A stretch of 64,000 nucleotides of DNA from a virus (lineage: Duplodnaviria > Caudoviricetes). Made by a program: the position numbers and the translations under genes. The DNA is taken from positions 1 to 64,000 of IMG/VR virus record IMGVR_UViG_3300037067_007581; one strand, written 5' to 3'. The notes under the pieces were generated by a model. That model did no database searches. It had not been told where the DNA came from and saw only the letters and a list, made by a program, of their open reading frames with translations. Shown here piece by piece: positions 11,595 through 17,265 of this stretch (within the stretch, counting starts at the first letter, position 1; every line of letters begins with the position of its first letter).

Positions 11595-12782
11595 ATGAAA
11601 GTAATCTCAACAGAAAAAATACCAATTAAAATGTGGCTAGAAGAAATTGAAGACGGAGCGGTTGAACAAGCTAAAAACCTTGCTAATTTGCCTTTTGCTT
11701 TTAAGCATATTGCGATAATGCCAGATAGTCATATTGGCTATGGTATGCCTATTGGTGGAGTATTGGCTACAAAGGATGTAATTGTCCCAAATTCTGTCGG
11801 TGTTGATATTGGATGTGGAATGTGTGCCGTAAAAACTTCTTTGACCGAATTAGACACTCCAACACTTAAAAAGATAATGGGTGAAATTAGAAAACAAATC
11901 CCAGTCGGGTTTGGACACCATAAAGAAAAACAAGACGAGAACTTAATGCCTCGTATTCCGTTAGCAACAGAACCTATTGTGAATGAGGAATATAATTCAG
12001 CCTTAACTCAAATAGGAACTCTTGGCGGTGGTAATCACTTTATAGAAATTCAAAAAGGTTCCGATGGTTATATTTGGATAATGATACATTCTGGGTCAAG
12101 AAATCTTGGATTAAAAATTGCTAAGTATTATAATGATTTGGCTATCAAATTAAATAAGAAATGGTTTAGTGAAGTTGACCCTAAATGGGAATTAGCATTT
12201 TTACCTATTGAAAGTGATGAAGGTCAGGCGTATATCAGGGAAATGAATTATGCGGTTGAATTTGCTCTGGCTAATAGAAAATTAATGATGGACAGAATAA
12301 TGAAAATAATTTATGACACTATTGAAGTTTCTTCAGAAGATGGACAATTTGGTGGAGTAACTTTCGAGCCGATGATAAATATCGCTCATAACTATGCTCA
12401 AATGGAAAATCATTTTGGTGAGAATGTAATGGTTCATAGAAAAGGGGCGACACTTGCCAGAAAAGATACTATTGGGATTATTCCAGGGAGCCAAGGAACA
12501 AAAAGTTATATTGTTAAGGGTTTAGGTAATAAGGAAAGTTTTGAAAGTTGCTCTCACGGAGTTGGTAGAAAAATGGGCAGAAAAGATGCTGAAAGAAGAT
12601 TAAATTTAGAGGATGAGATTAAAATGCTTGACGACCAGGGAATTTTACACGCCATTAGAGGAAAAGCAGATTTGGATGAAGCACCTGGTGCTTATAAAGA
12701 TATAAAAACAGTAATGGATAATCAATCTGATTTAGTAGAGATATTAGTAGAATTAACTCCGTTGGGAGTTATTAAGGGGTAA
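11595..12782 (+). CDS. rtcB: RtcB RNA ligase
   Basis: MPDSH, VGVDIGCG, GTLGGGNHFIE, HSGSR, HNY, HRKGAT and DEAPGAYK motifs. Confidence 0.95.
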   Translation: MKVISTEKIPIKMWLEEIEDGAVEQAKNLANLPFAFKHIAIMPDSHIGYGMPIGGVLATKDVIVPNSVGVDIGCGMCAVKTSLTELDTPTLKKIMGEIRKQIPVGFGHHKEKQDENLMPRIPLATEPIVNEEYNSALTQIGTLGGGNHFIEIQKGSDGYIWIMIHSGSRNLGLKIAKYYNDLAIKLNKKWFSEVDPKWELAFLPIESDEGQAYIREMNYAVEFALANRKLMMDRIMKIIYDTIEVSSEDGQFGGVTFEPMINIAHNYAQMENHFGENVMVHRKGATLARKDTIGIIPGSQGTKSYIVKGLGNKESFESCSHGVGRKMGRKDAERRLNLEDEIKMLDDQGILHAIRGKADLDEAPGAYKDIKTVMDNQSDLVEILVELTPLGVIKG

Positions 12783-12788
12783 TTGTTG

Positions 12789-12861
12789 TATGATAGATTA
12801 GTCTCTAAAAAAGATGATAGCTCGCCTGCCGTCATCAGTCTAAAGAGGCTAATCTATTATA
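12789..12861 (+). other. Long intergenic RNA hairpin after rtcB
   Basis: TATGATAGATTAGTCTCT/AGAGGCTAATCTATTATA: 18 bp including 2 G-U pairs, plus inner GATGAT/GTCATC. Confidence 0.7.
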
Positions 12862-12881
12862 TAATAATTAACTAAAATTTT

Positions 12882-15032: not shown

Positions 15033-15197
15033 ATGACAAAGAAAAAGACTTTTTATCAAGTATCAGTAGCTTGCTCTAATTGTGGGTATAAAGGAAAGAT
15101 AGCTATTGGCTATGGTAACCCTGTAATGGGTCAGATATGCCCTAATTGCGGTTGCCAAAACTTGAGGAAAGTGGGAGTAAAAGAGGATATGTATTAA
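15033..15197 (+). CDS. Small zinc-ribbon protein (not in ORF track)
   Basis: Manually translated 54 aa with CSNC...CPNC. Confidence 0.6.
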   Translation: MTKKKTFYQVSVACSNCGYKGKIAIGYGNPVMGQICPNCGCQNLRKVGVKEDMY

Positions 15198-15221
15198 AAG
15201 AACTTTTGTAAATAATAAGTT

Positions 15222-15232
15222 TGTGTTATAAT
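15222..15232 (+). promoter_or_regulatory. Extended -10 promoter
   Basis: TGTGTTATAAT (TRTGn-TATAAT); the predicted start at about 15239 coincides with the 5' end of the structured RNA. Confidence 0.65.
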
Positions 15233-15238
15233 ATTAGA

Positions 15239-15392
15239 ATAAGTTTCTGAAAGCCCGAGAGGGTTAAGAATTAACCAATGCGCGGCAACAGTTTGGGAAA
15301 CAGCCTTAATCTTTGACTCCCGTGAGCGAGAGTTAAGGATTGGGCTTTCAGGAACTTATCTATTAAAAAATGGGGTCAAGTCAAGGAGTCAA
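15239..15392 (+). ncRNA. Putative riboswitch-like structured leader / ncRNA
   Basis: 20-bp closing stem 15239-15258/15340-15359 with G-U pairs; three internal hairpins; TTGACTCC 15313-15320 is complementary to SD-containing GGAGTCAA 15385-15392. Confidence 0.65.
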
Positions 15393-15395
15393 GTT

Positions 15396-15773
15396 ATGTT
15401 AAAAAAAATTATTAAAGTATGGCACACAGTCAAAGGTCACGATAAGTTCATAGAAAGTAGCACCTTAGAGGAATATGAGAAAGAGCTAAATCCTAACTAT
15501 TTTCATGGGTTGGGAGACTATTCATTCATTCAGTCCAGAATGAGTAAGTTATTAGGAATGGTTCTAACAGTTATTGACGCTTCAATATCCGACAAGGTTC
15601 AAAATAAAGCCATTAAGGATTTAATCAAAACAGACTTTGTAGAGGAATATGCTTTCCTTTCAGAGAGTTTAATTGACGACCAATACATTCAGGATGCACA
15701 AGAGGACGTAGCTTTGGAAGACTTGGGGGAAGTAGATGCGCTGGCGGTCGTTGAAGAAGACGCAAAACGCTAA
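15396..15773 (+). CDS. Hypothetical protein with acidic C-terminus
   Basis: ORF track; AAGGAG SD upstream. Confidence 0.65.
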   Translation: MLKKIIKVWHTVKGHDKFIESSTLEEYEKELNPNYFHGLGDYSFIQSRMSKLLGMVLTVIDASISDKVQNKAIKDLIKTDFVEEYAFLSESLIDDQYIQDAQEDVALEDLGEVDALAVVEEDAKR

Positions 15774-16417: not shown

Positions 16418-16446
16418 TTGACAAAATAAAAAAGGTACTGTATAGT
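16418..16446 (+). promoter_or_regulatory. Sigma70-type promoter of the modification operon
   Basis: TTGACA 16418-16423, 17-nt spacer, TATAGT 16441-16446. Confidence 0.85.
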
Positions 16447-16460
16447 GCCTAATATAATAA

Positions 16461-16529
16461 AGGGCGTTCAACCCGTACCATTAAAAGGTCTGACTTTTTA
16501 ATTGGTGCTAGGAACGTCTTTTTATTTTT
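16461..16529 (+). promoter_or_regulatory. Structured leader / possible attenuator
   Basis: Outer GGGCGTTC/GAACGTCT stem, inner GTACCATTAAAAGG/CTTTTTATTGGTGC hairpin, then a T-tract. Confidence 0.55.
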
Positions 16530-16539
16530 ATATATATTT

Positions 16540-17265
16540 ATGAAAACAATTCAAAAACTTACAGTTAGCGAAATTTATGCAGGTATTACTACGGAAACTA
16601 TTAATTCAGGGGTACCTGCTATTTTTATTAGGTTGTCGGGACACAACTTGACTATAAAAAATGACCCTTACTCTTATACCTGGGATGAGAGCAATAAGGC
16701 AGTTGGATTACAGATGACCGCGAAAGATATAATTTTAGCTATTAGTAAATTAAAAGTTAAGACTAATCATTTAGTCATTACAGGGGGGGAACCTTTATTA
16801 CAAGACGCTGGTATTATAGAAGTTTTAAAAGAATATCAGTTTACTTTTAATAAAAAGCCTTTTGTAGAAATAGAAACCTGCGGGACTATTATTCCTAGTA
16901 AAGGTTTACAGACGTTGACAGATTTGTTTTCAGTTAATATTAAGTTAGCTAATTCTTTTTCTGGGTCTGCTAGAGATACCTTTTCTACGAGGATAAAGAA
17001 TAGTGTAATCAATTATTTTAATCAGAAAGACATAAAGTCTTATTTTAAATTTTATATTAAAGACATTGGAGATTCTTCAGAATTATTGGAATTAAAAAAG
17101 ATGTTTAAAATAGAGCTTAGTAGAATAGTATTAGTACCAGATGGCTTAAACTATACACAATTTATGAGAATATCTGGAGCAGTTTGGAACTTATGTATTA
17201 GTTCTGGGTTTAAATTTGCTATCAGAACCAAATTTTTAATTTGGGGAGATAAAAGAGGTTTATAA
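16540..17265 (+). CDS. QueE-like paralogue lacking the radical SAM CxxxCxxC motif
   Basis: VSEIY, PAIFIRLSG, VITGGEPLLQ, IETCGT and LIWGDKRG are retained; the Cys motif is replaced by HNLTIKND. Confidence 0.8.
   Translation: MKTIQKLTVSEIYAGITTETINSGVPAIFIRLSGHNLTIKNDPYSYTWDESNKAVGLQMTAKDIILAISKLKVKTNHLVITGGEPLLQDAGIIEVLKEYQFTFNKKPFVEIETCGTIIPSKGLQTLTDLFSVNIKLANSFSGSARDTFSTRIKNSVINYFNQKDIKSYFKFYIKDIGDSSELLELKKMFKIELSRIVLVPDGLNYTQFMRISGAVWNLCISSGFKFAIRTKFLIWGDKRGL

Follow-up and report, generated by a model that had tools for sequence, protein, structure and literature searches.

A predicted multi-helix RNA element, found in a single phage, within the pentamer-repeat leader of a conserved phage gene

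The leader of the gene for a 125-aa protein in this phage raises the question of whether its long stem belongs to a translational switch, in which one strand alternately hides and releases the SD sequence, as proposed in a preliminary description of the locus, or serves the transcript in some other way. The window (the whole stretch of DNA analysed, 64,000 nucleotides) covers the opening 64 kb of an 86-kb IMG/VR record (IMGVR_UViG_3300037067_007581) with an estimated completeness of about 72%. The genome has a GC content of about 32%, and the + strand holds all genes, those in the window including PolA, a helicase, the terminase large subunit, the portal and the major head protein. An RtcB gene (11595-12782) lies 2.5 kb upstream of the element, and a 7-deazaguanine DNA-modification cluster, with two QueE-like genes, a purine PRT, FolE and Gat-QueC, starts at 16540, about 1 kb downstream of it. 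The portal protein showed less than 30% identity to the portal of any cultivated phage, blastn against the INPHARED phages gave no match, and single-protein searches of IMG/VR with the 125-aa protein, Gat-QueC or PolA yielded no close relatives. The best matches to PolA in the JGI metagenomes reached only 32-36% identity, again with no close relative, and synteny with the window was absent from the 40 RtcB loci that were retrieved. GATC sites were observed 0 times in positions 1-64000, against about 189 expected from the base composition.

All the sequence features listed in the preliminary description were found in place, and they are collected in Table 1 together with those assigned here. 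The element had a minimum free energy (MFE) of -51.3 kcal/mol on the + strand (15235-15362; z -6.13), none of 200 dinucleotide shuffles being equally stable, and it ranked in the top four of the most stable 130-nt stretches of the window. The minus strand of the element was weaker (-42.8 kcal/mol). Its GC content is about 42%, compared to 32% for the genome, and it contains no ORF of at least 20 aa. The 20-bp stem reported earlier was borne out: positions 15240-15256 pair with 15342-15358 and, together with flanking pairs, render 20 contiguous pairs (24 if one bulged A is allowed) in a helix (P1) with a pair probability of 0.97. Three helices had been described inside it, of which P4 (0.93) and P2 (0.79) stood up well and P3 proved weak (0.18-0.32); therefore, a three-way junction is possible, in which a 29-nt G+C-rich strand would be floppy. 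The non-canonical pairs, as previously claimed, were all G-U on the + strand (3/3), one in P1 and two in P4. A competing CCC-GAGA-GGG hairpin was discarded, its probability being 0.008. Support for the fold comes from thermodynamics and from the three G-U pairs; covariation cannot be assessed, because the element has no homologues and the phage has no close relative.

Table 1. Features of the leader and of the gene that follows it (positions in the window)
Feature	Position	Strand	Description
Extended -10 element TGTTATAAT	15224-15232	+	Read from sequence; predicted start at about 15238-15241
Whole element	15235-15362	+	P1 closing P2, weak P3 and P4; fold prediction, z -6.1
P1 5' arm	15238-15253	+	Contains AATAAGTTTCTGAAAG; direct repeat (D2) of 15214-15225
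P2 hairpin GGTTAAGAATTAACC	15262-15276	+	GGTTAA/TTAACC; 5' arm resembles the repeats (GTTAAG); forms direct repeat D1 with 15328-15341
G+C-rich junction strand with weak P3	15277-15307	+	GGC..GTTT GGG AAAC..GCC
P4	15308-15341	+	12 bp; 5' arm AATCTTTGACTC, 3' arm GAGTTAAGGATT; two G-U pairs
P1 3' arm	15342-15362	+	GGGCTTTCAGGAACTTATCTA, inverted copy of box; inverted repeat I1
Canonical leader part	15363-15395	+	TTAAAAAATGGGG, then tandem GTCAAG GTCAAG GAGTCAAG TT; predicted single-stranded
125-aa protein gene	15396-15773	+	Phage family; core LADYSFIQ..LGKVLTIIDASI.D..QNKAxKDLIK

The extended -10 promoter TGTTATAAT would place the start of the transcript 7 to 9 nt downstream and therefore at the base of P1, in agreement with the earlier description. 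The sequence TGnTATAAT occurs six times in the 64 kb, and only the copy at 15224-15232 is followed by such a structure. No terminator was found between the element and the 125-aa gene, and no U-tract follows the helix. These predictions support the existence of a real + strand RNA structure in the 5' leader, just past a plausible promoter; the promoter, the start site and any cleavage of the transcript are predicted. In transcripts reading through from the upstream gene, positions 15353-15370 (the 3' side of P1 plus an A-tract) could instead pair with 15204-15221, a second, upstream copy of AATAAGTT that is 78% complementary to them over 18 nt.

Relatives of the element were sought with a single-sequence covariance model, nhmmer and blastn-short. 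In the 86-kb record the covariance model found only the element itself, which is thus single-copy, and it found nothing in 40 RtcB-anchored loci or in 75 loci of the downstream gene family (115 in all). The three methods together gave nothing across all loci, including those retrieved with PolA and with patterns. An exact 23-mer was absent from IMG/VR, and a two-arm pattern yielded three unrelated chance matches in GTDB genomes. Rfam gave 0 matches at the gathering score over the 64-kb window and, at E values up to 10, only three chance-level matches in 15100-15500 (CRISPR-DR65, PCGEM1 and a 22-nt IMES-2 fragment); the CRISPR-DR65 match, on the minus strand at 15177-15212 with an E of 0.54, was regarded as noise. 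The riboswitch classes covered by Rfam, among them preQ1-I/II/III, SAM-I and THF, were thus without a match. Judging from these searches, the element is a one-off orphan, unique to this phage.

The switch had been proposed because TTGACTCC (15313-15320), within P4, is the exact complement of GGAGTCAA (15385-15392), which covers the SD of the downstream gene. The complementarity is exact, and an 8-nt complement to the -20 to +3 region was found in 1.7% of shuffles. The gene is also, as had been stated, among the few with an SD, since SD-like motifs precede 5 of the 74 gene starts in the window. The pairing itself was examined by folding the transcript 15239-15420 either freely or with the anti-SD:SD helix forced. 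The forced state reached -38.8 kcal/mol versus -50.7 kcal/mol for the ground state, that is, 12 kcal/mol worse, and the pair probability in the ensemble was 0.000, so that the two-state switch did not withstand this analysis. The SD and the start codon were predicted to be unpaired, the anti-SD was fully paired inside P4, and P4 would be complete about 45 nt before the SD is transcribed. According to the fold, the gene is constitutively accessible unless something actively opens P4.

The broader reading as a riboswitch fared no better. Known riboswitches have a short switching P1, unlike the 20 to 24 bp of P1 here. No near-isoenergetic alternative fold that could act as an expression platform was present, no conserved aptamer with covariation appeared in the searched loci, and no link between gene and ligand emerged: the downstream 125-aa and 181-aa genes match no known family, and the first of them, the gene behind the element, codes for a phage protein and does not count as a metabolic gene. 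The que-like cluster sits behind its own TTGACA-17-TATAGT promoter and a terminator-like hairpin. Downstream of that promoter, of near-consensus sigma-70 type, a nested hairpin and then a long U-tract lead straight up to the first QueE-like gene (16418-16529); therefore, the deazaguanine cluster has its own promoter and an attenuator-like leader. The element lacks every riboswitch property that was examined. A striking fold plus an anti-SD complement is insufficient grounds for calling a riboswitch.

A different picture arose from the leaders of homologous genes. The 125-aa protein had no match in Pfam, PHROGs, NCBIfam or the ESM Atlas, and its AF2 model (pLDDT 80), a beta-hairpin plus a helical hairpin, had no fold match in PDB or BFVD with Foldseek. 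At E<1e-3, 203 representatives of the phage family to which it belongs were found. Members of the gene family in about 60 further phages stand behind a leader that lacks the element and measures only 32 to 54 nt (roughly 40 nt). In it, an extended -10 (TGnTAnAAT) is followed 6 to 12 nt later by a box, (A)GTTCTTTGAAA, at the position of the predicted transcript start, then by a spacer often ending in GGGG, and then by three to seven pentamers of the form AAGT(C/T) or, more broadly, A(A/T)GT(C/T), that extend into the start codon (consensus AAAGTTATGTCAAAA). The loci used were window positions 15363-15410 and loci L002-L005, L010, L012, L048-L054 and L056-L125. Two or more pentamers in the last 40 nt were found in 41 of the 58 non-redundant leaders, compared to 2.9% of random positions, and the box was found in 29 of the 58, compared to 3.3% of random positions. 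The canonical part of the window's leader was assigned by eye alignment with L049, L053 and L094, by the consensus and the GT periodicity, and by unpaired probabilities. Its repeats include, 7 nt ahead of the ATG, the SD-like sequence AAGGAG, which the repeats of 8 of the 58 non-redundant leaders contain as well. In 875 kb of phage DNA, the pattern GT[CT]AAGT[CT]AA was almost exclusive to the leader of this gene family; therefore, the SD sequence GGAGTCAA is one unit of the array and not a free-standing SD.

A possible role for this conserved leader is that of a translational operator. Rfam does not contain it, and a literature search on the repeat motif gave unrelated matches only. The box-plus-pentamer leader is a more general new observation than the structured element; if the repeats did serve as such an operator, possibly with the protein encoded by the gene as their reader, the leader would be a portable autoregulatory cassette across many uncultivated phages. 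In the window, a 10-codon out-of-frame uORF (15370-15402; ATGGGGTCAAGTCAAGGAGTCAAGTTATGTTAA) runs across the repeats and ends 4 nt past the main ATG; its conservation was not seen in the homologous leaders inspected.

Compared with these leaders, that of the window is expanded between the box and the gene, the box-to-ATG distance being 153 nt versus 32 to 54 nt in the homologues. The order in the window is TGTTATAAT, 10 nt, a box-like GTTTCTGAAAG in the 5' arm of P1, the junction, an inverted box, CTTTCAGGAAC, in the 3' arm of P1, then TTAAAAAATGGGG, the repeats and the ATG. From a comparison with L003, L005, L012, L049, L072 and L094, the AATAAGTTTCTGAAAG of the P1 5' arm is likely the counterpart of the GTTCTTTGAAA box of the family. 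The arms of the junction also resemble the leader, with repeat-like units in P2 (GGTTAAG) and P4 (GAGTTAAGG) and the complements of such units on the opposite strands (TTAACC and CTTTGACTC, respectively). Thus, the 5' arm of P4 is an anti-repeat that includes the so-called anti-SD, and its 3' arm is a repeat-like copy. In addition, GAGGGTTAAGAATT forms a direct repeat with GAGAGTTAAGGATT and AATAAGTTTGTG with AATAAGTTTCTG, and the internal repeats comprise the direct ones D1 and D2 and the inverted ones I1, I5 and I6. Since the arms are copies or complements of repeats in the leader itself, local duplications, both direct and inverted, seem to have built the element on the spot, and such an origin would account for the anti-SD complementarity without calling for a function. 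As regards the homologues, the element was wholly absent from about 60 phages, and an equivalent complement reached p<0.05 in 5 of 56 leaders, a chance level.

An independent, non-alignable multi-helix insert was observed between two copies of the box in a different phage, in front of the same gene family (locus L115, 1249-1346). It has a 14-bp closing helix (z -4.2), and a GUCAA unit together with its complement again makes up the first hairpin. In L087, a long hairpin at the equivalent place is a less clear case. The window and L115 would show leaders growing new RNA structure from their own repeats.

We regard the element as a structured phage leader, which is a known kind of RNA. The reading that we tentatively prefer, with a confidence that falls a little short of even, is that of a lineage-specific, cis-acting structured module, an insertion of about 120 nt made from reiterated leader pieces ahead of a gene of early type, whose likely role would be that of a 5' stabilising or RNase III helix. 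The leader box would have been turned into the 5' strand of a helix of 20 to 24 bp closing a multi-helix junction, and we infer a module that works constitutively and in cis rather than by sensing a ligand. A helix formed from the first transcribed bases would shield the 5' end of the mRNA. P1, with two turns of perfect dsRNA, would also be a natural candidate substrate of RNase III, for which about 20 bp or more of near-perfect dsRNA is expected, a length that P1 attains at a pair probability of 0.97. Cleavage would free the junction and leave an mRNA starting near the canonical leader (…CUAUUAAAAAAUGGGGUCAAG…). Either way, the repeat array with AAGGAG would stay open to ribosomes or to a factor that reads the repeats.

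Two points argue against this role: a junction with a G+C-rich unpaired strand exceeds the needs of a stabiliser or of an RNase III site, and the complement to the SD, which only 1.7% of shuffles contain, could have a function and need not be a side effect of descent from the repeats. Further long, perfect helices with + strand G-U pairs lie between genes of this phage, which fits a shared role in processing or stability. The most stable structure of the window is a near-perfect helix of 27 bp closing a small hairpin (12780-12870; z -8.7), located between the RtcB stop codon, which it adjoins, and the next gene, with several + strand G-U pairs and no U-tract. A leader junction RNA was also observed at 2125-2222 (z -7.8 for 2078-2250). 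The sequence UUCUGA occurs both in the helix that closes it and in P1 of the element, and the covariance model of the element found no relation between the two RNAs.

In its proposed role the element comes closest to the RNase III helices of phages and to 5' stabiliser hairpins, both of which it exceeds in complexity. RNase III processes helices in phage transcripts at the early-region sites of T7 and in the lambda N leader. Like the element, these sites occupy an intergenic or leader position in a long one-strand transcript, with about two turns of dsRNA enclosing further structure beside a translation start that is sensitive to accessibility. The T7 sites differ in having two stacked helices around an internal loop; the element has a predicted junction and shares no sequence similarity with them. 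Simple 5'-terminal stem-loops stabilise mRNAs in the ompA leader of Escherichia coli and in the SP82 and ermC/aprE leaders of Bacillus subtilis, and the element would resemble them in a helix that lies 0 to 2 nt from the 5' end (a predicted end in our case), works in cis with no ligand and keeps the RBS accessible. These known stabilisers are simple hairpins, in contrast to the 128-nt multi-helix junction of the element, whose start site is predicted. Riboswitches with a four-way junction (SAM-I) and the preQ1 classes, which control que genes, invite comparison because the element is a multi-helix structured 5' UTR near 7-deazaguanine genes, with an A-rich tract after the helix; they differ in that P1 of the element is three to four times too long, in that the element has no Rfam match, no near-isoenergetic alternative fold and no conservation, and in that the que-like genes have a promoter and leader of their own. 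As for the conserved leader, tandem-triplet operators are bound by oligomeric RNA-binding proteins, as in the (G/U)AG-N2-3 repeats of TRAP, the sites of HutP and the GGA sites of CsrA. Like the TRAP sites of trpG and trpP, the conserved leader has units repeated three to seven times with a 5-nt period across the start codon; unlike them, its unit is A(A/U)GU(C/U), with GU best kept, and the motif travels with one phage gene family.

Several other classes were considered. Of these, the Y RNAs, the pRNAs and the PeSL cassettes were rejected, and membership among the MITEs could not be demonstrated. An 18-nt terminal inverted repeat is present, with AT at both ends, although 2 nt carries no weight as a target-site duplication; dispersed copies were not found, the element being single-copy in its own genome, and the two-arm pattern gave only three chance matches in GTDB. 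A Y RNA (YrlA-like) is expected to have a Ro/Rsr (TROVE) partner gene and a tRNA-like domain with a T-loop; the 86-kb record, although it carries RtcB, gave no match to TROVE, ARAGORN made no tRNA-like call, and no Rfam Y RNA was matched. The pRNA of phi29 belongs to the packaging of small protein-primed podoviruses without a terminase; the present phage is longer than 86 kb and encodes a terminase large subunit, and no Rfam match to such a pRNA was obtained. The PeSL cassettes of T4-type phages combine a sigma-70-like promoter with a stem-loop and travel with small accessory ORFs, one subclass having the stem-loop downstream of the -10 box; they are about 100 bp long and multi-copy per genome, and their stems act as terminators (PMC2839356). 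The element differs in its single copy, its lack of a U-tract and its far greater complexity.

Three further explanations were weighed against the cis-acting module. The element could be a neutral or selfish palindromic insertion (MITE-like), or a relic of local duplication, tolerated since the initiation region was left free. By inspection, deletion of 15240-15355 leaves the canonical spacing (TATAAT, 7 nt, TCTATTAAAAAATGGGG, repeats), and the terminal inverted repeats of 16 to 18 bp, flanked by AT on both sides, and the restriction to this phage agree with such an origin. We nevertheless hold it to be unlikely: the element is single-copy in 86 kb, with the 23-mer absent from IMG/VR and only chance matches in GTDB, each of its three non-canonical pairs is a G-U in the transcribed strand, and the interior is itself highly structured and G+C-enriched. 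A stand-alone sRNA, in which a junction domain of about 85 to 120 nt would be excised by RNase III within P1 and act in trans (as a sponge or decoy, for instance, of an AAGUY-binding factor or of a protein of host defence or RNA repair), appears quite improbable. Such an RNA would be in keeping with the element having its own promoter, a very stable compact fold and a GC content above that of the genome, with a P1 long enough for RNase III, with arms that display repeat units, and with an RNA-repair RtcB 2.5 kb upstream plus other structured intergenic RNAs. It is at odds with the continuity of the element with the conserved leader, no terminator intervening, and with the searches, in which neither another copy or relative, nor a Ro/TROVE partner, nor an Rfam sRNA, Y RNA or pRNA was found.

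A switch driven by a factor would refine the original proposal. A protein or ligand would open P4 through its 3' arm GAGUUAAGG or through the junction, freeing CUUUGACUCC, which would pair with GGAGUCAAG and block initiation. The exact complement of 8 nt (9 with a G-U), rare among the shuffles, speaks for it, as do the two G-U pairs of P4, compared to an SD pairing that is all Watson-Crick, the G+C-rich unpaired strand of the junction, and a suitable position between promoter and start codon. However, the energy gap and the null probability of the alternative state apply here as well, P4 is closed before the SD is transcribed, and a P1 of 20 to 24 bp must either stay closed or open independently. 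Conservation was lacking in Rfam, in the related loci and in IMG/VR, an anti-repeat was not above chance in the homologous leaders, and complementarity is expected from repeat-derived arms. We consider this switch decidedly unlikely. The fuller version, in which the junction senses a phage or host factor or a small molecule that unlocks the anti-repeat strand of P4, which then silences the repeat/SD operator, we consider slightly less probable still; if true, it would be a new phage-born class of regulatory RNA atop an undescribed pentamer-repeat translational operator of a widely conserved early phage gene.

With regard to initiation in the phage at large, a motif of the TAATTA/AATTAA type was observed at -30 to -5 of 39 of the 74 gene starts, compared to 8 +/- 3 for random positions, often in the form TAATTAATTAA, which holds stops in all three frames. 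Together with the rarity of SD sequences, this motif suggests a host that initiates translation without an SD.
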